A stretch of DNA of 39,207 nucleotides, taken from a virus. The first letter of the stretch is position 1. Each line of letters starts with the position of its first letter. Shown here piece by piece: positions 1,780-16,368 of the stretch. The DNA lies in UHGV virus genome UHGV-1357020. The stretch is one strand, 5' to 3'. The notes below the pieces were generated by a model that saw only the letters and a list, made by a program, of their open reading frames with translations, did not search any database and was not told the origin of the DNA. Position numbers and translations under genes: made by a program.

Positions 1780-3255
1780 TTACGGCATGTGGTAGTAGTA
1801 TACTTTAAGTTCGTCTTCTTCTCGATCATAGACAATTTTCTCCACAACGCTTCTAAGCACCTCATTCTTGGTCGTCGCATCTACGGAATCGGATGAGAGA
1901 ATATCGTACACATTTTTTACTCTCATCAACATATCATTGTCCTCATTTTTGGTGCTTATTTTCTCTTCTTTAAGCTCAGACAGTTGTTTTTCTAGACTGT
2001 CTTTCTCTCCCTGCACAATCCGTTTATTTTCCTTGTATTCTTCCATAGTATCAATTCCATTCATGTATGCCTCTTTGATTCTCTGCAGCTTCACGTCGAT
2101 TTTCTTTATCTGATCTTCCAGTATGGTTTTCAAGTCCGCAGTATCTTCCGTTTTAGCCTCAATCTTCCGGTAGGTTATTTTTCCAGTATCCAATACAGAC
2201 TTAATTGATTCCAATACCGCAGGCTCAAGCTTTAGAGAGCTTATGGAGTTCTTCGCCGCACATTTTCCCTTGGAGTATCCGTAACAGCGAAAATAGCAGT
2301 ATGTCTGCTTATTGTTTTCAATCTTACAGGCAGTCATCGTCCTTCCACACGCTGGGCATTTAACGATCCCAGATAGCCAGTGCTTGTACGTGCTTGCCGG
2401 TCTCGCTCCACGTGGGCGGTATTCTCTCTTGTATCGCTCCTGTGCCTTATCAAACAATTCCTTACTAATGATTGCAGGTTGTTCTCCCTCAGCGATAATC
2501 CACTCGCTTTCTGGCCGGATCTCTTTCGATTCATTAATCGTCCGATTCCACCGCACCATCCCGCAGTAAGTGGGGTTCTGTAGGATATATTCGATAGACC
2601 TTCGTTCAAATTCTTTCCCATGTGATGTTTTAAAGTTATGGCTATTCAAGAGCCGTGCGATCTCAAACAGTCCCATGCCGTCATGCACATACTTTTCAAA
2701 AATCAGCTTCACGATTTCAGCCTCTTCCGGTACGATCACTGGCGGTTCTTTATGTGATACAATCTTGTACCCAAGTGGTGGGCGTGCTTGGTATCCACCT
2801 CGTTCCGCTTTTTCTCTCATTCCTCTTGTTACTTCTCCGGATAGACGGACAGAGTAATATTCATCCATCCACTCAATAATTCGTTCGATCAGAGAGCCGA
2901 ATGGACCATCTACCAGTGGTTCAGAGATGCTTATTACGTCCACGTTATGCTTTTTCTTGAGCAAGGACTTGTATACAATACTTTCCTCTTGGTTTCGTGC
3001 AAATCGGCTGAATTTCCATACCAGTATGGCATCTGCCGGATGATCGGATGATTTCGCAAGACCGATCATTTTTTGAAACTCTGGGCGTTTGTCTGCTTTT
3101 CTTCCGGATATTCCGAGTTCAAAAAAGATTTTCGATACTACATATCCGTGACTTTTCGCGTAATCTTTCAATAGCTTCGCTTGAGAATCCGGGGATAATT
3201 CATCCTGTTTTCCTGTGGATACACGGACGTATCCAAAAGCGTATTTCGTTTCCAT
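1780..3255 (-). CDS. int: large serine recombinase (phage integrase)
   Basis: 491 aa. The N-terminal resolvase catalytic motif YVRVSTGKQ contains the catalytic Ser. Followed by a recombinase domain, a Cys-rich zinc ribbon (CPACGRT...CYFRCYGYSKGKC) and a C-terminal coiled coil. AAGGAG RBS on the minus strand. Confidence 0.9.
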   Translation of the reverse strand: METKYAFGYVRVSTGKQDELSPDSQAKLLKDYAKSHGYVVSKIFFELGISGRKADKRPEFQKMIGLAKSSDHPADAILVWKFSRFARNQEESIVYKSLLKKKHNVDVISISEPLVDGPFGSLIERIIEWMDEYYSVRLSGEVTRGMREKAERGGYQARPPLGYKIVSHKEPPVIVPEEAEIVKLIFEKYVHDGMGLFEIARLLNSHNFKTSHGKEFERRSIEYILQNPTYCGMVRWNRTINESKEIRPESEWIIAEGEQPAIISKELFDKAQERYKREYRPRGARPASTYKHWLSGIVKCPACGRTMTACKIENNKQTYCYFRCYGYSKGKCAAKNSISSLKLEPAVLESIKSVLDTGKITYRKIEAKTEDTADLKTILEDQIKKIDVKLQRIKEAYMNGIDTMEEYKENKRIVQGEKDSLEKQLSELKEEKISTKNEDNDMLMRVKNVYDILSSDSVDATTKNEVLRSVVEKIVYDREEDELKVYYYHMP

Positions 3256-3435: not shown

Positions 3436-3810
3436 TTATAAAACGTGTGACGCTATAAGTCTGTTTATAGATTGCACATCTGAGTTCGAGGTGAAATCAA
3501 ATTTTACTGTTCCTAATCCACTAAAACAAACAGTGAGTTCTGAGTCCATATCGAAAGTGCCAGAAGTTTCAACCGAAAATGCTTGCATTTTTGAATACGG
3601 CAACGATGTATAATCTTTTTTAGTTCCTGCAATACCTTGCACGTTGCATGCAATAATTCTTTTGTTTGTAAAAACAACGAAGTCTCTCATCGAAGAGTAA
3701 TACCCGGCCACTTCTTCATCAGTTACAAGCAAGCTGAAAACTTCTCTCGGAATGTTCTTTTCTTTTCCTTTGCTTAATTTGAATACTTTTTTGTTCTGAA
3801 AATCAATCAA
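3436..3810 (-). CDS. hypothetical protein with a possible bacterial PH-like (YokE/bPH-type) fold, a moron in the lysogeny operon
   Basis: 124-aa ORF co-oriented with int, the lipoprotein gene and immA/immR. The fold assignment is a pattern-based guess only. Confidence 0.45.
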   Translation of the reverse strand: MIDFQNKKVFKLSKGKEKNIPREVFSLLVTDEEVAGYYSSMRDFVVFTNKRIIACNVQGIAGTKKDYTSLPYSKMQAFSVETSGTFDMDSELTVCFSGLGTVKFDFTSNSDVQSINRLIASHVL

Positions 3811-3840
3811 TGTATGTTCCTTCTTTCTTAATTCAATGCT

Positions 3841-4305
3841 TTATTTTTTGGTTAACTCGACCTTTTTTGTAGTTCCCATAGCGGACGCTTCATAACTAAT
3901 CACACCGTCTTTGTATGTAAATTCTTTTGTATCGTCACTTGATGCTAGTAACGCCATCCCTGTTTTTTCTTTATCGTTTTCCGATGTCCATGCGTAATCG
4001 TTAGTTGGCTCGGTTGGCGCAACGTAAGTGCCAGCCCAGTAAAGTGATTTTGTATTTCCTCCATCAGACACCCAATTTATTTCTATTACATCATCAGAAA
4101 TCGTAGCTTCTTGATATGACCCTTCGACTTCTTCTGATTTCCATGTTCCAGTTAAATCCAAAGGCTCTTTCTTCTCTTCTTTCTGGTCTGTTGTTTCTTC
4201 TGTCTTTGTTTCGGTGTCTTTGGATGGTTCGGCATCCCCACCACATGCTGTAATTGATAATGCCATAATTCCCGCTAATAGCATTGCTACAATTTTCTTT
4301 TTCAT
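3841..4305 (-). CDS. prophage lipoprotein (signal peptide plus lipobox LSITAC, Glu/Lys/Thr-rich spacer, ~100-aa beta-rich domain)
   Basis: N-terminal MKKKIVAMLLAGIMALSITACGG is a textbook lipoprotein signal. Located between int and the repressor, like the Ltp/Sie lipoproteins of dairy streptococcal phages. Confidence 0.7.
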   Translation of the reverse strand: MKKKIVAMLLAGIMALSITACGGDAEPSKDTETKTEETTDQKEEKKEPLDLTGTWKSEEVEGSYQEATISDDVIEINWVSDGGNTKSLYWAGTYVAPTEPTNDYAWTSENDKEKTGMALLASSDDTKEFTYKDGVISYEASAMGTTKKVELTKK

Positions 4306-4365
4306 AGTTTCCTCACTTTCTTATGTACCTTAACACCACTTTACTCTATATAAACGCTGTAGCGA

Positions 4366-4851
4366 TTATATCATTTCCATAACTGCTAAATTAGGAATAA
4401 AATAAATAACATAATTATCTACAGTAATATACTCACCGTATTTTCCTTTGTAGCAGTCAATAGCTTCTTGCAAATATTCTTCTGTGACATGCAGATGTTC
4501 TGCAACTTCATATCTATTCTGGCAACCAGCATTAAAAGCTGATATGATGCCTCGCAATCCGATCATCCGGTTATATCCGCGTAATCGACCTTTTTGTTCT
4601 TGCTTTAGATTTTCAATATTCATTTGGTCAATGATATTTCCAACAGCAGTGAAATGATGTCCCATTTCTTCTGCGAGTACACACGCTTTTTCTGTTGATG
4701 TTCTTAACCTATCAGATATTGCAATTCTATTTCTGAATATTCGTCCATCACTCCCGGACAGAGGCTTCTCACGGACTACGAGTCCGCTATTTTTCGCCTC
4801 TTCTAAAAGTTCCTCATAAATTGTCATCGTATCACTCCCATTCAGAGTCAT
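4366..4851 (-). CDS. ImmA/IrrE-family (DUF955-like) metallopeptidase paired with the repressor. The zinc motif reads AEEMGHH, not canonical HEXXH.
   Basis: 161 aa. Overlaps the upstream XRE repressor gene by 20 nt. Motif position is comparable to ImmA. Confidence 0.6.
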   Translation of the reverse strand: MTLNGSDTMTIYEELLEEAKNSGLVVREKPLSGSDGRIFRNRIAISDRLRTSTEKACVLAEEMGHHFTAVGNIIDQMNIENLKQEQKGRLRGYNRMIGLRGIISAFNAGCQNRYEVAEHLHVTEEYLQEAIDCYKGKYGEYITVDNYVIYFIPNLAVMEMI

Positions 4852-5323
4852 CCATCATGATGTCATCATCATGTTTTCTCATTTCATTGGTTACTTTAAT
4901 ATCGGTACGTTCGTGAGCCGCCATTACTGATAGATCATCATCCATTTGTTGTATAGATAGCAATTGTTCAATGTAATTATCGGCTTTTCTTCTATTCATC
5001 TCAATCAACTGCAAATACTTTTTAAAATGAGTCTTTTCTCTCGAAGATAATGCGCCAATGTTATCAATTATATTTTCGAGATTATCATTTGTAAATACGT
5101 TTTCAATGTATTTATCGGTAGCTGAATCTAAATCCATGAGATAGGTAGGTGAGCAATCAAAAATTTCTGACATTTTCGCAATAGTAGAACGTTTTATATT
5201 CTTAACTCGCCCATTCTCATATTTTGCTATCGCAGATTTTTGAAGCCCCAACTTCTGTGCAAGCTCTTCTTGGGTGAGCCCAACTTCTTTTCTTTTGCTC
5301 TTTATTCTATCTGACATTGCCAT
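4832..5323 (-). CDS. XRE-family HTH transcriptional repressor (ImmR/CI-like). There is no S24 autopeptidase domain.
   Basis: N-terminal HTH KRKEVGLTQEELAQKLGLQKSAIAKYENGR. GGAGAA RBS. Divergent from the Cro-like gene across an operator-rich intergenic region. Confidence 0.85.
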   Translation of the reverse strand: MAMSDRIKSKRKEVGLTQEELAQKLGLQKSAIAKYENGRVKNIKRSTIAKMSEIFDCSPTYLMDLDSATDKYIENVFTNDNLENIIDNIGALSSREKTHFKKYLQLIEMNRRKADNYIEQLLSIQQMDDDLSVMAAHERTDIKVTNEMRKHDDDIMMDDSEWE

Positions 5324-9826: not shown

Positions 9827-10656
9827 GTGGCAGACTTGATAATTGATAGGTTTGGAACTAAGCGCAAATAGGATTGAATGGACAACATATCTCGGACAAT
9901 CCATCCGTCATACATATTAGAGAGGTGGTGCAAGTGACTATAAAAAACATCGTAGTAATTAACGGTAAAGAGGTGGAGATCAGAGACCTGCCGGACGCTG
10001 AACTGTTTGCAGAAAAGCTAAACCGGAAAGTTCTGACCGAAAGAAACTATGAGGAAGATAGGTGATGACATGAAACCAGATATGGAAAAAATCATACAAG
10101 TGTTGATATCTCTTATCGAAGAACAGGAACATGTGAAAATTGATTACACACTCGAAAAGAGGACAGAAGAGGAAACCGCCTAGGCGGTAGAAGGGAGGAC
10201 AAGCTGTGAAAAGGCTGACAATCAATCATATTGAGAAATTCATCCAGACGCTGGAATCCACAGAAAGGGTTGGTTGGTATTCTGAGGAGCAAAAGTTGCA
10301 CGCAATCGCCTGTTTAAACAATTACTGCAGGGAACTGGAGTATCAAGGAAGAAAATCCGTGAAATTAAAGGAGGAAGAACATGGAAATTAAAGGAACCTA
10401 CCACTGCCAGACCACTCAGCAACCCAACACTTTAAATAGCTGGGATATCCGGTCAGTATCGGTAGATCTGCCGGAAGAAGAGGACAAGCCTTATTGGATC
10501 AGAGCTGGTGCGATGGTGATCGGGTTTATCTTGGTGCTACTGGCGTGGTATCTGGTGTTTGGGTATTAAAAATGAGCACCTACAAAAAGGCTGGGGAGCC
10601 GTAGGTACTCTGACAAAAAATCAAGAATATAGTAACAGATTTTAGGAGGATAAGCA

Positions 10657-10923
10657 ATGGATAGAGAAAAAATACATAAACTTTTAGACTTAATTCTTGA
10701 GATTCAAGAGCGTGGAGAAGGTAGGAATGGGTATCCGTACGTAAACATTGAATTTTCGAACTACGGTAGCAGAATATTTTTAACCGCACAAGAAAACGGA
10801 TTTGTTACTGATGGAGATTACGATTTGTTTGACGGTATTGCAACAGATAAGCAACTAGATGATGCAATTATTTTAGTTGGGGTATTGCTGGAAATGGCAG
10901 TGGACAAGACGGAGGACGAATGA
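10657..10923 (+). CDS. hypothetical protein (88 aa)
   Basis: AGGAGGA RBS. The stop overlaps the next start (ATGATG). Confidence 0.5.
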   Translation: MDREKIHKLLDLILEIQERGEGRNGYPYVNIEFSNYGSRIFLTAQENGFVTDGDYDLFDGIATDKQLDDAIILVGVLLEMAVDKTEDE

Positions 10924-11135
10924 TGTATGTAGGTATCGGACCAGAGAAAGGAAAGAAAGTGCATGACGAAGATGCCTTTTCTTACGCCTGCGAACGAATA
11001 AACAATGGTACGGAAAGAGAACAGGAAACATTTATGCAGATCATGAAAGAAGCTGAGAGTTTTTACATGGCGGTGGTCACAGTTGTGCTGTGGTATTTTT
11101 CCGGAAATTGGGTGTACGAGGAGGTGGCTCTATGA
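10920..11135 (+). CDS. hypothetical protein (71 aa)
   Basis: Translationally coupled to the upstream ORF. Confidence 0.4.
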   Translation: MMYVGIGPEKGKKVHDEDAFSYACERINNGTEREQETFMQIMKEAESFYMAVVTVVLWYFSGNWVYEEVAL

Positions 11136-11293
11136 TTACGATGCAGCAGCGCAAGGAGAGAATTGAAGATCTATTGGATGAGCGTCTCGGGATGATTGAG
11201 AATGGGGAGGTGAATACATATTACCAGACAAGGGATATAGCAAATCTGACGCAGGCACTTTTAAATATTACAAGGATCATGAAGGAGGAATGA
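11132..11293 (+). CDS. hypothetical protein (53 aa; MITMQQRKERIEDLL...)
   Basis: GGAGG RBS upstream of ATG 11132. Ends at the ATGA overlap with the erf gene. Confidence 0.4.
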   Translation: MITMQQRKERIEDLLDERLGMIENGEVNTYYQTRDIANLTQALLNITRIMKEE

Positions 11294-11295
11294 AT

Positions 11296-12021
11296 ATGAA
11301 TATATATCAAAAAATGAGTGCAATTACAGCAGAAATCACAGCTGTTGCGAAAAATCTGAATGTAGGTTGGGGGCAAAATTCTTACAAGGCCGTAGGCGAA
11401 GCAGATGTTCTGGCCGCTGTAAAACCAATCGAAGAAAAACACGGTGTTTACAGTTATCCTGTCAACCGACATATTATGGACACATCCGTTTTAACTTCAG
11501 TCAATTCAAAGGGCAACGAAGTTAGACAGTTATTTATGAGAATCGAAACTACATATAGATTCGTTAATGCTGAAATGCCAGAAGAGTACATTGACATCAA
11601 AACGTATGGTGATGGAGTAGATTCACAGGATAAGGCACCGGGGAAAGCGATGACATATGCGGATAAATACGCATTGTTGAAAGCTTATAAGATTATCACT
11701 GGTGATGATCCAGATCAGGAATGCAGCAAAGAACTGAAAGGAAAAGCAGCCAAACCTGCAAAATCATGTAAATCAGAAGCGACAGTAAGGCAATTAGAAT
11801 CAAAAGAGTCCGGCGAGCAGTCAAAAAACACGAGTAATGAGCTATTAAGCAGCGCAGAACGCTCTGCTATTGAGAGTCGATGTAAGGAAGATGGGGTTGA
11901 TGCAGATAAGTTATTATCTTTGTACAGCCTTAGCTCATTCGAAGGAATGAAATATAAACATTACGATAATATTTTGAAAAACTGGGAAAAAGTAAAAGAA
12001 AAATGCGGAGGTGCAAAATAA
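11296..12021 (+). CDS. erf: ERF-family single-strand annealing protein (recombinase)
   Basis: Motif KAMTYADKYALLKAYKIITGDDPD matches the ERF-superfamily core. AAGGAGG RBS 7 nt before ATG 11296. Followed by ssb with a TAATG overlap. Confidence 0.75.
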   Translation: MNIYQKMSAITAEITAVAKNLNVGWGQNSYKAVGEADVLAAVKPIEEKHGVYSYPVNRHIMDTSVLTSVNSKGNEVRQLFMRIETTYRFVNAEMPEEYIDIKTYGDGVDSQDKAPGKAMTYADKYALLKAYKIITGDDPDQECSKELKGKAAKPAKSCKSEATVRQLESKESGEQSKNTSNELLSSAERSAIESRCKEDGVDADKLLSLYSLSSFEGMKYKHYDNILKNWEKVKEKCGGAK

Positions 12022-12434
12022 TGAACAGCGTAAATTTAACAGGTAGATTAACCAGAGATCCAGAAATCAGATATACAGATGCAGGGCTTTCGATTGCAAG
12101 ATTTTCCATTGCTGTAGACAGGAGATTTTATAAGGACGGTGAGCAATCAGCGGATTTTATAAACATCGTATCATTCGGAAAAACAGCAGAATTCATTGAA
12201 AAGTGGTTTAAGAAAGGGACGAAAATTGAAGTATCCGGAAGAATTCAGACAGGATCATATGCAAACAATGACGGGGTAAAGGTTTATACAACAGACGTTG
12301 TTGCGGAGCAAGTCGGTTTCGCAGAGAGTAAGAACTCGCAAAATTCAGGAGCTAACAGAGTATCAGAATCACATGATGATGGGTTCGTAAATATTCCGGA
12401 CGGAGTAATCGACGAAGAAATGCCGTTTAATTAG
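12021..12434 (+). CDS. ssb: single-stranded DNA-binding protein (OB fold, acidic C-terminal tail DEEMPF)
   Basis: N-terminus MNSVNLTGRLTRDPEIRYT, internal pattern ...VSGRIQTGSY and C-terminal DEEMPFN are classic SSB features. Confidence 0.85.
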   Translation: MNSVNLTGRLTRDPEIRYTDAGLSIARFSIAVDRRFYKDGEQSADFINIVSFGKTAEFIEKWFKKGTKIEVSGRIQTGSYANNDGVKVYTTDVVAEQVGFAESKNSQNSGANRVSESHDDGFVNIPDGVIDEEMPFN

Positions 12435-12436
12435 GA

Positions 12437-12949
12437 GTGATTTTATTGGTTATACAAATAGACAGTAGGGAAAAATCGAGAGCGATTAAAAAAATCATAA
12501 AAACATTTGATGAGAAAGGCGTGAAGCATCCAGTATCTAAGTTAATGGTCGGAGATTATATGAACTATGACAACCCACGTCTTGTCGTTGACAGAAAACA
12601 GAATTTAACAGAGGTGTGCTGCAATGTTTGTCAAGACCACGAAAGATTCAGAAGAGAACTGGTGAAAGCAAATGAAAATGGAATTAAAATCATATTTCTT
12701 GTTGAGCACGGAAAAGATATTGAAACTTTGGAAGATGTTATCTGGTGGGAAAATCCGAGGGGTGCGAAGCGGCAACGGAACAAAGAAACAGGGAAATGGG
12801 AAACTGTTAAGACGAAAGCAATGACCGGAAGAACTCTGTACAAAGTCCTATGTACCATCCAGAGGAAGTATGAATGCGAATTCTTGTTTTGCGAGAAAAA
12901 CGATACCGGAAAGAAGATTATTGAGTTATTGGACGAAAGACATGAATAA
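12437..12949 (+). CDS. ERCC4/XPF-Mus81-type PD-(D/E)xK nuclease (putative branched-DNA/Holliday-junction resolvase). TTG at 12446 is the more likely start.
   Basis: Motif series IDSREK ... VGDY ... VVDRKQNLTE ... FLVEHG matches the ERCC4 signature (D-x-RE, GDY, ERK-like, LxE). Sits where RusA/RuvC-like resolvases sit in ERF-SSB modules. Confidence 0.55.
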   Translation: MILLVIQIDSREKSRAIKKIIKTFDEKGVKHPVSKLMVGDYMNYDNPRLVVDRKQNLTEVCCNVCQDHERFRRELVKANENGIKIIFLVEHGKDIETLEDVIWWENPRGAKRQRNKETGKWETVKTKAMTGRTLYKVLCTIQRKYECEFLFCEKNDTGKKIIELLDERHE

Positions 12950-13433
12950 AGAAGAGATTAAACATTCACACAGCATGAGAGAGATTGTGGAAAGATATGG
13001 GTTCCATGTAAATCGGGCGGGGTTTATTCACTGCCCGTTCCACAAAGGAGACAAGGGAGCATCATTAAAAATCTACCCAGACAGCTTCCATTGTTTCGGA
13101 TGCGGAACAAATGGAGATATCTTTACATTCGTACAGCTAATTGACCACGTTGATTTCAAAGAAGCGTTCCAGAGTCTTGGTGGAACTTATGAAAAGCCGA
13201 CATTCCAGTCGAAATTGGCGATATACAGGAGCCGGAAGAAGGCAGAACAGAGAAAGCGAGAAGAGGAAAAGCTTCGGAAAAAAAGAGAGCTGAATAATGT
13301 TCTGATTGATGTGTACCGCGATTATATGAATAAATCAGAACCGTTCAGCGAGGTATGGTGCGATTGCTGCAATGCGTTGCAGTACCAGTTATATTTGCAT
13401 GAAATATTAAACAGAGAAGAGGTGAGGAAATGA
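12942..13433 (+). CDS. stand-alone DnaG-type CHC2 zinc-finger protein (primase zinc-binding domain only)
   Basis: CPFHKGDKGASLKIYPDSFHCFGCGTNGDIFTFV is a canonical zf-CHC2 motif. ATG overlaps the previous stop (ATGAATAA). No TOPRIM domain within its 163 aa. Confidence 0.7.
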   Translation: MNKEEIKHSHSMREIVERYGFHVNRAGFIHCPFHKGDKGASLKIYPDSFHCFGCGTNGDIFTFVQLIDHVDFKEAFQSLGGTYEKPTFQSKLAIYRSRKKAEQRKREEEKLRKKRELNNVLIDVYRDYMNKSEPFSEVWCDCCNALQYQLYLHEILNREEVRK

Positions 13434-15298
13434 GGGAAATGAACGAATTCGATGCAGACAGCATATTGGATGATGAAGTTTTCATCGAATTATTTGAAAT
13501 GGAAGATCCGATTCTCCGGTCAAAAACAAAAGTGCAGCTCATCAGAAGAGCGAAGCAGCTGGGAGTCAAGTCGGATTTTGAAGAGATTTTGAAAGGATAC
13601 AATCAGGCTGACCGAGAAATGAAGAGACAGGAACGGGAAAACAGAACTGTTTGCACAGTAGATAACTATACGAATTTCACAGGACCTCACGATCGTATGT
13701 ATTGCGGCGCCTGGATTGCGGATGATCGCGGCGTGTTCGCACAGAATTCCGGAAGGGTTGATGAAGTGGCTTGCTATCACCCAATCCTACCAGTAGAGCG
13801 GCTGCGAAACTTAGAGACCGGGGAAGAGCAAATAAAACTGTCGTACAGGCGAAATAATCAGTGGCACGATATTGTGGTCCCAAAAACGATGATCACATCG
13901 GCGAATAAGATCGTGGCATTATCCGGAAGAGGGATTGCAGTTACGTCAGAAAATGCAAAATTGCTAGTCAAGTATCTGGCTGACGTAGAAAATGGAAACG
14001 ATGATTACATAGATGTGCAGTATTCCACTAGTAAACTTGGGTGGATCAAGGATCAGTTTATCCCCTATGATACAGACATCATTTTTGACGGGGATAATCG
14101 ATTTAAGCAGACCTTTGAAAGCGTGTCGGAGCATGGAAGTTTCGATGTGTGGTTAAATCATGTTCGAGAGTTAAGGGTGTCAGGAAGAATGGAAGTGAAA
14201 TTCCTATTGGCCGCATCATTCGCAAGTGTACTGGTTCATGTCTTGGGCGGACTTCCATTTTTTGTCGATCTGTGGGGAGAGACAGAGGGAGGAAAGACGG
14301 TATCTTTAATGGTCGCAGCTTCCGTGTGGGCGAATCCAGACGAAAGTAGATATATTGGAGACTTCAAAACAACGGATGTTGCACTGGAAGCGAAAGCGGA
14401 TATGTTGAATCATCTTCCGATGTTTCTGGACGATACGAGTAAAACATCCGCAAGGATTAGGGATAACTTCGAGGGAATTGTTTACGATCTGTGTTCCGGA
14501 AAAGGAAAGAGCCGGTCAAACAAAGACCTCGGAATCAATCGAGAGAATCGGTGGCGGAATGTAATGATCTGTAATGGAGAGAGACCGCTTAGCAGCTATG
14601 TCAGTCAGGGCGGTGCAATAAACAGAATCTTAGAGGTTGAGTGTGGCGAGAAAATCTATCAGGATCCGCAGAAGACAGCGGAAACGGTAAAACGGAATTG
14701 CGGTCACGCAGGTAGGAAATTTGTGGAGATTATCAAAGAAATGGGAGGAGATGAAATTCGTTCTATCCAGAAAGAGTTTCAGAAGGAGTTATTTGGCACG
14801 GACAAGATGCAGAAGCAGAGTATTTCGCTTTCCATCGTCCTGACAGCCGATAAAATAGCCACAGATCTCATTTTCAAAGATGGGCAGTATATTTCGATAG
14901 ACGAAGCGAAACAGGTGCTTATAGACCGAAATGAGCTGTCTGACAATGAGCGATGCTACCAATATATCCTTGATAAAATCGCAATGAACAGCCAGAGATT
15001 TGATGTGTCTTCAAATTGTGAAAAATGGGGAATTATTGAGGATGGGTACGCAGTAATTTACGGGCAGGCACTTAAGGAAATCTGCGAATCTGGGAAATTC
15101 TCAAAAAAGTCCTTCCTGTCATGGGCTGCAAAGAAAGGCGTTATTCAGCAGGACAGCAGGGGAAACCCAACAAAGCTGAAAAAGATAGACGGAAGAGCGG
15201 CGAGATGCGTGTTTTTGCAACTTGAATCGAAAGGAAATACGGATAATGATGGGTTTGAAAGCATCGATGAAACACAAGAAAAGCTACCTTTTAGTTAA
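13430..15298 (+). CDS. replication primase-helicase, DUF927/VirE-like P-loop NTPase (Walker A GETEGGKT)
   Basis: 622 aa. P-loop WGETEGGKTVSL. ATGA overlap with the zf-CHC2 gene. Followed by an iteron array. Confidence 0.7.
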   Translation: MREMNEFDADSILDDEVFIELFEMEDPILRSKTKVQLIRRAKQLGVKSDFEEILKGYNQADREMKRQERENRTVCTVDNYTNFTGPHDRMYCGAWIADDRGVFAQNSGRVDEVACYHPILPVERLRNLETGEEQIKLSYRRNNQWHDIVVPKTMITSANKIVALSGRGIAVTSENAKLLVKYLADVENGNDDYIDVQYSTSKLGWIKDQFIPYDTDIIFDGDNRFKQTFESVSEHGSFDVWLNHVRELRVSGRMEVKFLLAASFASVLVHVLGGLPFFVDLWGETEGGKTVSLMVAASVWANPDESRYIGDFKTTDVALEAKADMLNHLPMFLDDTSKTSARIRDNFEGIVYDLCSGKGKSRSNKDLGINRENRWRNVMICNGERPLSSYVSQGGAINRILEVECGEKIYQDPQKTAETVKRNCGHAGRKFVEIIKEMGGDEIRSIQKEFQKELFGTDKMQKQSISLSIVLTADKIATDLIFKDGQYISIDEAKQVLIDRNELSDNERCYQYILDKIAMNSQRFDVSSNCEKWGIIEDGYAVIYGQALKEICESGKFSKKSFLSWAAKKGVIQQDSRGNPTKLKKIDGRAARCVFLQLESKGNTDNDGFESIDETQEKLPFS

Positions 15299-15312
15299 GA
15301 GGAGGAAATACA

Positions 15313-15489
15313 ATGTCAAAAGTTGTGAGGATTAGTAATGAAAACTATGATTTTATTGAATGCATGGCGTTCAGGAATGGAGTTCCGATAAATGCAATAT
15401 TAAATGAGGTGCTGGAAAAATTCAAAAATTCGTCGCCGAATGATGTGATTTCAGTGGAACACCGGGGCAGAAAAGTTGCGATAAGGTAA
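15313..15489 (+). CDS. 58-aa putative ribbon-helix-helix (CopG/Arc-like) DNA-binding protein
   Basis: GAGGAGG RBS. Beta-strand-like KVVRIS followed by helical segments. The stop overlaps the first iteron. Confidence 0.35.
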   Translation: MSKVVRISNENYDFIECMAFRNGVPINAILNEVLEKFKNSSPNDVISVEHRGRKVAIR

Positions 15490-15690
15490 CAAGTAACAAA
15501 AGTAACAACAGGAAATCGCGCTATATATACGGAATAAAAATGTGAGAAATTCAAAAATATGAAGTCCCTATATAGGGTAAAAATCATTGTTACTTTTGTT
15601 ACCAACCTCAAAAACCTGTCAACCATGCTGGTTTGATAGGGTAACAGACTTTTGTTACCGGAAGAAAAATTTTGTTGCTTTGTTACGAAG
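15486..15690. repeat. iteron array (heptamer GTAACAA / TTGTTAC, at least 7 copies in both orientations) flanking an AT-rich core with the perfect palindrome CCCTATATAGGG. Putative origin of replication.
   Basis: Direct copies at 15486, 15493 and 15502. Inverted copies at 15587, 15597 and 15682. Inverted pair GGTAACA-N7-GTTACC at 15640..15659. Palindrome at 15566..15577. Lies immediately downstream of the primase-helicase. Confidence 0.6.
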
Positions 15691-15700
15691 AGGGTAGTGT

Positions 15701-15904
15701 ATGCACGAAAAAATAACAGATATCCAGAATTTGTTCTGGAAAGCGTATAAAAATTATAAAGGTACCGGCTCAATGAGTCAATACAATGCAGATGTCGATG
15801 GGATTATTGAGAAGTACAGGGATGATCATGCTATGTTGAATTTCTGCAAAAACTTGGCAATATCATGGGCGCCGGTTATTAACGAAATGAAAGAAGAGGG
15901 TTAA
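15701..15904 (+). CDS. hypothetical protein (67 aa)
   Basis: ORF directly after the iteron region; GGGTAG RBS-like sequence. Confidence 0.4.
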   Translation: MHEKITDIQNLFWKAYKNYKGTGSMSQYNADVDGIIEKYRDDHAMLNFCKNLAISWAPVINEMKEEG

Positions 15905-16222
15905 ATGAATAAAAGAAAGCTATATAAGCCGTACATAAAGACCATTCAACGCATGATTGAAAATGGATTTACAATCCAGAACATCTATGCAGCAATAAGC
16001 GAAGAGAGCGGAATCGATGCAAGTATTGAAACGTTCAAAAACTTTTTAAAAGACAATGATATGCTGCCTGAGTCAAAGAAACAAGAAACTTCGGTTAAGG
16101 ATATCTTTGGAACAATCGCAAATTACATGGAGTTTCACGAAGGCTGGGTACGGACCAGTTGCCGACTCAACAGGGCGATGTCGAATCCAAACCGGATATT
16201 AATGCGGAGGTATTTACAGTAG
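15905..16222 (+). CDS. hypothetical protein (105 aa)
   Basis: ATG overlaps the stop of the previous gene (TAAATG). Confidence 0.45.
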   Translation: MNKRKLYKPYIKTIQRMIENGFTIQNIYAAISEESGIDASIETFKNFLKDNDMLPESKKQETSVKDIFGTIANYMEFHEGWVRTSCRLNRAMSNPNRILMRRYLQ

Positions 16223-16368
16223 GCTATGAAAAAAAAAGAAAGAGAATCCGAAGAAAAATGAAGTACATATCTGTTCTTCCTGTGGACGGGAAATCATCGG
16301 AGATTTTGAGTATGTAAAGACAAAGAGAGGGACGGAATTGTATTTTTGTAAAGATATGAGGTGTAGAC

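Follow-up and report, generated by a model that had tools for sequence, protein, structure and literature searches.

The virus genome UHGV-1357020, a stretch of 39,207 nt (the window, meaning the whole of the DNA that was analyzed), carries at positions 12942–15700 what we take, at a probability of roughly 0.78, to be a lytic replication module on the plan of the Staphylococcus aureus pathogenicity island (SaPI) SaPIbov1 and of the helicase Cch (DUF927, MCM-like), with its origin 3′ of the rep gene. The module is made up of a 163-aa zinc-finger protein, a 622-aa predicted initiator-helicase, a 58-aa protein that is plausibly of the ribbon-helix-helix (RHH) kind, and arrays of GTAACAA iterons. 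The original prediction for this region included an iteron/AT-rich/iteron origin like those 3′ of rep in phage-inducible islands, and that proposal is supported by the homology of the helicase to SaPI Rep, by a match to the published definition of a SaPI origin, by about 50 relatives with the same layout, and by the joint exchange of the origin with one domain of the helicase.

Predicted Initiator-Helicase

The 622-aa Rep-type protein is encoded at 13430..15298 (+ strand) and consists of an N-terminal helical region (residues 1–104), a DUF927/MCM-like AAA+ core (residues 105–369, nt 13742–14536, +; Pfam DUF927, 1.5e-40), and a Cch-type C-terminal winged helix (residues 506–600, nt 14945–15229, +; Pfam HTH_56, 3.1e-18). 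It matches phrog_8841 over its full length. The closest solved structure is PDB 8tch, a staphylococcal "Pathogenicity island protein" (1.8e-30 over residues 106–551), followed by Cch, the helicase of the staphylococcal cassette chromosome mec (SCCmec; PDB 5dgk, 1.8e-7 over residues 233–427). A literature search on the code 8tch returned no relevant paper, and the source SaPI is therefore not assigned. A tblastn search with the helicase recovers the Rep protein of PT1028, which also belongs to DUF927. By these matches, the protein is a predicted DUF927/MCM-like initiator-helicase homologous to SaPI Rep, a class of self-loading initiator-helicases in which the C-terminal winged helix reads the iterons (PMC9371898, PMC7581432). 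The P-loop ascribed to this protein in the original prediction is indeed there (region GETEGGKT in the open reading frame, ORF, at 13430–15298); the accompanying label of primase-helicase is not retained, as neither Pfam nor profile-profile comparison detected a primase domain in the 622 residues.

Architecture of the Probable Origin

The window contains 13 copies of the heptamer GTAACAA (expected, 5.6), seven of which fall within the 201 bp between 15486 and 15686. The highest count in any 201-bp span across 1000 first-order Markov simulations was three, and a Poisson estimate for the seven-heptamer cluster, corrected for all positions, is ~1e-10. The left array (15486..15508, +) holds three direct copies at 15486, 15493, and 15502 (start-to-start distances of 7 and 9 nt), and the right array (15587..15602, −) holds two inverted copies (TTGTTAC) at 15587 and 15596, with 9-nt spacing, facing the left array; the segments 15493–15508 and 15587–15602 form 16-nt inverted arms that are 100% complementary and 78 nt apart. 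Beyond them, a distal cluster of four copies (15641..15686) ends 14 nt ahead of the next gene (15701) and consists of GGTAACAg at 15641 (+, one mismatch), TTGTTACC at 15652 (−, exact), TTGTTGC at 15672 (−, one mismatch), and TTGTTAC at 15680 (−, exact).

Between the two opposed arrays lies a 78-bp AT-rich core (15509..15586), the presumed unwinding region, whose GC content of 0.31 (0.417 for the window) is at the 5th percentile of 78-nt windows. Within it lie a TATATATA stretch (15523–15530) and a perfect 12-bp palindrome, CCCTATATAGGG (15566–15577). The heptamers, the AT-rich core, and the palindrome had all been pointed out before, and each is found at the coordinates given for it, the heptamers as seven exact and two one-mismatch copies. 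A SaPI origin is defined by 6–12 iterons directly 3′ of rep, an AT-rich center, and at least two opposed iterons per side (PMC9371898). With seven exact and two degenerate iterons, arranged as three direct copies, the 78-bp core, two inverted copies, and four more, the window agrees with this definition at the sequence level in each respect. The first iteron is 187 nt past the rep stop codon here, and the 58-aa gene (15313–15489) intervenes.

This layout was compared across 46 IMG/VR loci (helicases 61–100% identical), 49 close loci in which the RHH gene was counted, and a set of distant relatives. About 50 related loci keep the origin layout 3′ of the helicase gene, and every relative examined has it. 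Among the 46 IMG/VR loci there are three iteron types (GTAACA, GTTACA, and GTTACC), which share a layout of three direct copies 3′ of rep, ~80 bp of AT-rich sequence, and two inverted copies. A change in the left arm is always matched by one in the right, the left arrays of relatives with GTTACA or GTTACC iterons are equal in position, number, and spacing, and relatives also have a counterpart of the distal cluster built from the lineage's own iteron. The distance from the rep stop to the start of the first iteron is no more than ~30 nt in 35 of the 49 close loci and throughout the distant relatives (mostly 0–6 nt; 26 nt in Jekyll). The distant relatives are Roseburia phage Jekyll (helicase 62% identical to that of the window, iteron GTAACA), a circular element of Eubacterium callanderi (L060; 42%, GTTCCC), Anaerostipes phage AC844P1 (L003; 39%, GGTAACC), Thermoanaerobacterium THSA-485A (32%, GGTAACCGA), and Faecalibacterium FP_Epona (28%, AGGTGAAAC); the layout is also found 3′ of the helicase gene in L052, L056, and L059. 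PT1028, which is SaPI-like, has three AGTTCCC copies starting 3 nt past its DUF927 rep gene, and the E. callanderi iteron GTTCCC is the hexamer that also occurs in this staphylococcal element (L058 4100–4400).

A palindrome resembling CTATATAG is placed ~10 nt before the inverted iterons and is kept in each of the three iteron types, whether or not the RHH gene is present; it may be a melting site, a host-factor site, or a site for another factor. No + strand sigma-70-like promoter was found in 15300–15700 in any lineage, no + strand terminator-like site was found in the origin region, and 15200–15900 gave no Rfam match. A strong leftward promoter-like site (TTGACT-17-TATAAT, 11/12, 15781->15753, −) lies inside the downstream gene and points into the origin. 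Other loci have it only if they share that gene in nucleotide sequence, and we take it as incidental.

Joint Exchange of the Helicase C-Terminal Domain and the Origin

Nucleotide identity between the window and two relatives, L016 and L020, is 85–100% up to ~14980, drops to 42–68% over 14982–15700, and stands at 97–100% from 15702, the recovery falling at the first base of the gene downstream of the origin (15701). The helicases of these loci are 97–99% identical to that of the window over residues 1–480 and 60–62% identical over residues 500–622, and their iterons are GTTACA (L016) and GTTACC (L020) versus GTAACA in the window. Judged from these alignments, the helicase C-terminal domain and the origin form one recombination unit, a putative specificity cassette (14982..15700, +) set between the conserved core of the helicase and the conserved downstream gene. 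Of the coding sequences, this domain is the only one whose changes follow those of the iterons.

Within the C-terminal domain, the helix FSKKSFLSWA is near-constant and the hairpin that follows it is variable. This wing segment of the winged helix (residues 571–588, VIQQDSRGNPTKLKKIDG, 15140..15193, +), in which N579 is the key position, is the candidate determinant of iteron specificity, on the evidence of motif/iteron covariation. The wing motif G-R-x-TK is paired with GTTACC iterons in three lineages, G-Q-x-TK is paired with GTTACA in three lineages (L059 among them), and (R/K)GN(P/H)TK or GQYTK is paired with GTAACA, so that one wing residue tracks iteron position 6: arginine occurs with C, and glutamine or asparagine with A. 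Arginine with a G:C pair and glutamine or asparagine with an A:T pair are common recognition preferences. The pattern suggests a code in which arginine would read C/G, and glutamine or asparagine A/T, at this position. Because the C-terminal domain and the origin are swapped as one cassette, and because a wing residue covaries with the repeat, we predict that the winged helix reads the iterons.

RHH-Like Gene Between rep and the Origin

The 58-aa gene (15313..15489, +) occupies the interval between rep and the origin, and its TAA stop codon (15487–15489) is inside the heptamer at 15486, which bears out the earlier remark that an RHH gene overlaps the first iteron. The protein has no Pfam match at E<0.1 and no PHROG match. 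An AlphaFold2 (AF2) monomer model (predicted local distance difference test, pLDDT, 81) has an extended segment at residues 1–8, helices at 9–22 and 26–39, and a C-terminal hairpin. Foldseek hits to this model are not significant (best E-value 0.7), and the top of the list is mostly RHH proteins (AvtR, CopG, Arc, CdbA, MatP, and PutA); on this model, the protein is plausibly RHH-like. There are only five close clusters, and a profile search gave 12 matches among 1.8 billion representative proteins; no larger named family can be assigned from these 12.

The gene is present in 14 of the 49 close loci. It is missing from L018 and from L015, whose helicase is 96% identical to that of the window and whose origin is equal. 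Divergent homologs (69–76% identical, and one more distant) lie between rep and the origin in L052, L056, and L059, and these loci represent two iteron types: L059 carries an iteron type (GTTACA) other than that of the window. The N-terminal strand of the protein, KV[VI]R[IV]S, is constant across iteron types. The positional link of the gene to the replicon is real, since the homologs occupy the rep-origin slot in all three of these loci. The gene appears to be optional and dispensable for origin function, because most relatives with an equal origin are without it, and for the same reason, together with the constancy of the N-terminal strand, the protein is unlikely to be the reader of the iterons.

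These observations bear on whether the heptamers belong to an origin at all. Omega, CopG, and other RHH proteins recognize short repeats arrayed in direct or inverted orientation, the heptamers occupy an intergenic region that directly precedes the next gene, and the RHH gene has its stop codon in the first heptamer, all of which would suit operators at which the RHH-like protein, or a DNA-binding protein encoded downstream, regulates transcription of the genes from 15701. We nevertheless consider this improbable. The same array layout is present without the RHH gene in 35 of the 49 close loci, in Jekyll, in THSA-485A, in Epona, and in the E. callanderi element; the helicase C-terminal domain is the sole coding segment that changes with the iterons, the downstream gene being 97–100% identical where the iterons switch; the RHH N-terminal strand is unchanged between GTAACA-type and GTTACA-type loci; and no promoter-like site was found on the + strand in 15300–15700.

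A possible role for the RHH-like protein, which we put forward tentatively and rate well below even odds, is that of an origin-linked regulator that binds in or near the origin (at the palindrome or the first iteron) and either times or limits initiation or autoregulates read-through transcription. Such a regulator would be compatible with initiation driven by Rep. The presence of divergent homologs in the identical slot in L052, L056, and L059, across two iteron types, and the RHH-like AF2 model speak for it, and against it are the lack of significant Foldseek E-values for that model, the fact that an RHH-specific repeat was not identified, and the lack of the gene in most relatives with an otherwise identical origin (L015 and L018).

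Zinc-Finger Protein and the Source of Primers

Upstream of rep, a stand-alone zf-CHC2 protein of 163 aa (12942..13433, +) has the zinc finger (Pfam PF01807) and, after it, a conserved, helical C-terminal half (motif EPFSEVWCDC). Zn_ribbon_DnaG (PF01807, 4.3e-14) is its sole Pfam match; it matches phrog_11992 over its full length and the DnaG zinc-binding domain in PDB (1d0q, 2e-9). The zinc ligands C31, H34, C51, and C54 are invariant across the family, which comprises 1177 homologs; the best 120 of the 1177 are all 143–167 aa long. The zinc-finger and helicase genes directly adjoin in 46 of 46 loci. No RNA-polymerase/TOPRIM domain was found in the 163-aa protein by Pfam or hhalign, and an hhalign comparison of its family with the family of complete primases aligns only residues 14–86, with nothing past the finger. 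This part of the original prediction, a separate 163-aa zinc finger devoid of TOPRIM, is therefore confirmed.

Complete primases of this kind do occur, in fused relatives of the module. The proteins of THSA-485A (830 aa) and FP_Epona (918 aa) start with an equivalent zinc finger, followed by ~220 residues that Pfam does not name. Searches for TOPRIM by sequence in the linkers of THSA-485A (residues 86–315; Pfam and PDB) and Epona (residues 91–335; Pfam only) gave no match even at E<=10, and the primase domain was recognized through the family alignment, an AF2 model, and Foldseek. The ~220-residue segment family has invariant VEGESD and E-x-D-x-GG motifs, and the invariant residues of the complete primases are E182-G-E-S-D186 and E225-x-D227-x-G-G. 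In Foldseek, the AF2 model of one family member (pLDDT 84.5) matches the zinc-binding and RNA-polymerase domains of Aquifex DnaG at 1.7e-15, with further matches to T4 gp61, Twinkle, and the T7 gp4 primase. The domain of the fused relatives is, as modeled, a DnaG/T7-type primase. Since these relatives have a complete DnaG-like primase, the ancestral arrangement is a full primase-helicase-initiator.

In the lineage of the window, comparison with the fused proteins indicates that the gene has been split and the catalytic domain lost, which would make the zinc-finger protein a conserved primase remnant. No primase catalytic domain was found among the 29 window ORFs scanned for domains, and neither protein of the module matches the corresponding domain of the fused relatives. 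The split primase of the original prediction accordingly gives way to a primase remnant beside an initiator-helicase. A true split primase, in which the zinc-finger protein and the helicase N-terminus work together in a very divergent form, would be consistent with the conservation and constant adjacency of the two proteins and with a MAFFT alignment that set the start of the helicase (NEFDADSIL) opposite the TOPRIM motif VEGESDxQTL of the fused relatives. We consider it very unlikely: in profile-profile comparison, the primase catalytic domain resembles neither the helicase N-terminus (probability 0.09%) nor the zinc-finger protein past residue 86, E182-G-E-S-D186 and E225-x-D227-x-G-G have no counterpart in either window protein, and both segments look helical by inspection rather than alpha/beta. 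The relic TOPRIM at the helicase N-terminus that MAFFT suggested was rejected on the same hhalign probability of 0.09%.

Because the catalytic domain was not found, host DnaG is the presumed source of primers, in agreement with the report that the SaPI primase is non-essential (PMC7581432); given that dispensability, the missing active primase does not count against a SaPI-like mechanism. What the retained zinc finger does is a guess. In DnaG, the zinc-binding domain of one molecule can work in trans with the catalytic domain of a second (PMC2978363), and on that basis one might propose a hybrid virus-host primase, in which the viral zinc-binding domain serves as a trans adaptor for host DnaG, providing template recognition and a tether to the viral helicase. 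The tether would join host primase to a 3′->5′ MCM-like helicase of the virus on which DnaG finds no docking site of the DnaB type. We regard this proposal as speculative and rather doubtful. In AC844P1, the zinc-finger slot (L003 2634–2894) holds an 86-aa protein that has no zinc finger and aligns only with the helical C-terminal half, so the helical tail may be the part that is relevant to the helicase.

An ERCC4-type nuclease gene is always located directly upstream of the zinc-finger and DUF927 helicase genes (12437–15298 for the three genes in the window; L002, L003, L052, L056, and L060), and this triad is conserved among phages with 39–100% identity in the helicase. The nuclease may be part of the replication module.

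Proposed Mechanism

By homology, the 622-aa protein would act as a self-loading initiator-helicase, with its C-terminal winged helix binding the GTAACA(A) iterons past its own gene, from which they are displaced here by the 58-aa gene. As in SaPI Rep, the opposed arrays (three direct and two inverted copies) would seat two hexamers around the 78-bp core and so bring about its melting, after which the helicase would move 3′->5′. With the catalytic RNA-polymerase/TOPRIM domain apparently lost, to judge from the searches, the host primase would make the primers. The zinc-binding domain, kept under selection as the 163-aa protein, would probably be a helicase-associated accessory for template recognition or primase recruitment, and the RHH-like protein an optional, origin-linked accessory regulator.

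Several points weigh against this mechanism. For binding, melting, and replication at the origin, it relies on inference throughout. At a GC content of 0.31, the core is AT-rich to a moderate degree only, and the SaPI model does not account for the CTATATAG palindrome that is present in every lineage. The correlation between wing and iteron comes from few lineages and has no DNA-bound structure behind it. The role of the zinc-finger protein is, as stated, conjectural, and AC844P1 keeps the module with no zinc finger, which makes the finger dispensable in at least one lineage.

Comparison With Known Systems

The module is of the known SaPI/Cch Rep-origin kind, and what is unusual in it is the orphan zinc-binding domain and the swappable cassette of C-terminal domain and iterons. 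It resembles the Rep-origin systems of the SaPIbov1/SaPI2 type in the homologous helicase core (8tch, 1.8e-30), in the C-terminal DNA-binding domain, and in an origin directly 3′ of rep where two sets of short iterons face each other across an AT-rich center. It differs from them in that its carrier is a complete, integrating Lachnospiraceae phage rather than a satellite, its iterons are GTAACAA heptamers rather than of the GTTCCC type, and an RHH-like gene separates rep from the origin. An active primase gene upstream of rep is a further SaPI trait (an archaeo-eukaryotic primase, AEP/PriCT_1), whereas the upstream gene of the window encodes a zinc-binding domain of the DnaG type alone, with no catalytic domain.

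The likeness to SCCmec Cch (PDB 5dgk) extends to both the DUF927 core and the C-terminal domain, HTH_56 being the "Cch helix-turn-helix," although sequence similarity to the window helicase is low (1.8e-7, residues 233–427). To our knowledge, no origin has been defined for Cch. Cch has been described as related to SaPIbov1 Rep, in a paper that defines an origin only for the unrelated Cch2 (PMC7581432). The fused proteins of THSA-485A and FP_Epona share the helicase and HTH_56 domains, the N-terminal zinc finger, and an iteron origin 3′ of the gene, and they have the complete primase in one polypeptide, whereas in the window finger and helicase are encoded separately and the catalytic domain has been lost. 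Similar to the zinc-binding domain of T7 gp4 and bacterial DnaG, the 163-aa protein has a CHC2 zinc ribbon with all four ligands; unlike in those proteins, the domain stands alone, has a novel helical tail, and is encoded beside a predicted 3′->5′ MCM-like helicase that is not of the DnaB family.

Phage Context and Lifestyle

Over 12000–16367, the window is ~97% identical at the DNA level to Ruminococcus phage phiRg507T2_2, a temperate siphophage of R. gnavus, and the window is itself an integrating temperate siphophage of Ruminococcus (Mediterraneibacter) gnavus. On the − strand, it encodes a large serine recombinase (1780–3255; Resolvase, Recombinase, and Zn_ribbon_recom domains), a bacterial PH-domain (bPH) protein (3436–3810) whose gene adjoins that of an ImmA/IrrE-like peptidase (4366–4851), and, as the neighbor of that ImmA-like partner, a CI-like helix-turn-helix repressor (4832–5323). 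Of these three genes (3436–5323, −), those of the peptidase and repressor make up a typical protease-repressor switch, beside which the bPH gene is unexplained. Other genes of the window encode Rha, AntA, an ERF recombinase, a single-stranded DNA-binding protein, and the ERCC4 nuclease, as well as a sigma-like late regulator and a terminase. No DNA polymerase or second primase, and no ParA/ParB, plasmid Rep, or other partition function, was found in the ORFs scanned. According to the paper that describes them, six phages of R. gnavus integrate and share a tyrosine integrase (PMC10072058); the window has a serine recombinase instead, and its lysogeny module therefore differs from that of phiRg507T2_2 and its relatives.

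This gene content contradicts the suggestion that the phage is maintained episomally as a phage-plasmid, with the module as a plasmid-type maintenance replicon and the iterons serving copy control or partition. A phage-plasmid has maintenance functions and no integration module, whereas the window has the serine recombinase, the CI-like repressor with its ImmA-like partner, Rha, and AntA, and has no ParA/ParB or plasmid Rep in the ORFs scanned; the related R. gnavus phages also integrate (PMC10072058). In favor of a plasmid, an equivalent module is carried by Eubacterium callanderi p1_EUCAMar (39.8 kb), which is deposited as a circular plasmid, and further DUF927 genes are found on small plasmids. 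The E. callanderi element, however, has a recombinase and no listed partition genes, and of all the alternatives considered we find plasmid-type maintenance the hardest to credit. The 39.8-kb "plasmid" record (NZ_CP132156.1, L060) is in fact a complete siphophage genome, with the ERCC4/zinc-finger/DUF927 module at 10183–12952, and because it has a recombinase and lacks listed partition genes, it may be an excised prophage.

Implications

The module offers a specific candidate origin and initiator for a family of temperate phages that infect R. gnavus and further Lachnospiraceae, bacteria that are abundant in the gut and have been associated with inflammatory bowel disease. No primase, helicase, or origin is mentioned in the paper on R. 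gnavus phages (PMC10072058). The module would carry the Rep-origin design of SaPIs and SCCmec beyond satellites and cassettes into whole phages of Clostridia, and the natural swaps of C-terminal domain and origin over three iteron types are a ready system for dissecting how self-loading helicases read their origins. The origin and rep pair could also be a starting point for shuttle vectors in those Lachnospiraceae in which genetic work is difficult. Furthermore, a primase zinc finger that is conserved with no catalytic domain leads one to ask by what means bacteria could link priming of the lagging strand to a helicase that moves 3′->5′, and a hybrid primase, if true, would be widespread in the phages of gut Firmicutes, given at least 1177 homologs of constant length with invariant zinc ligands.

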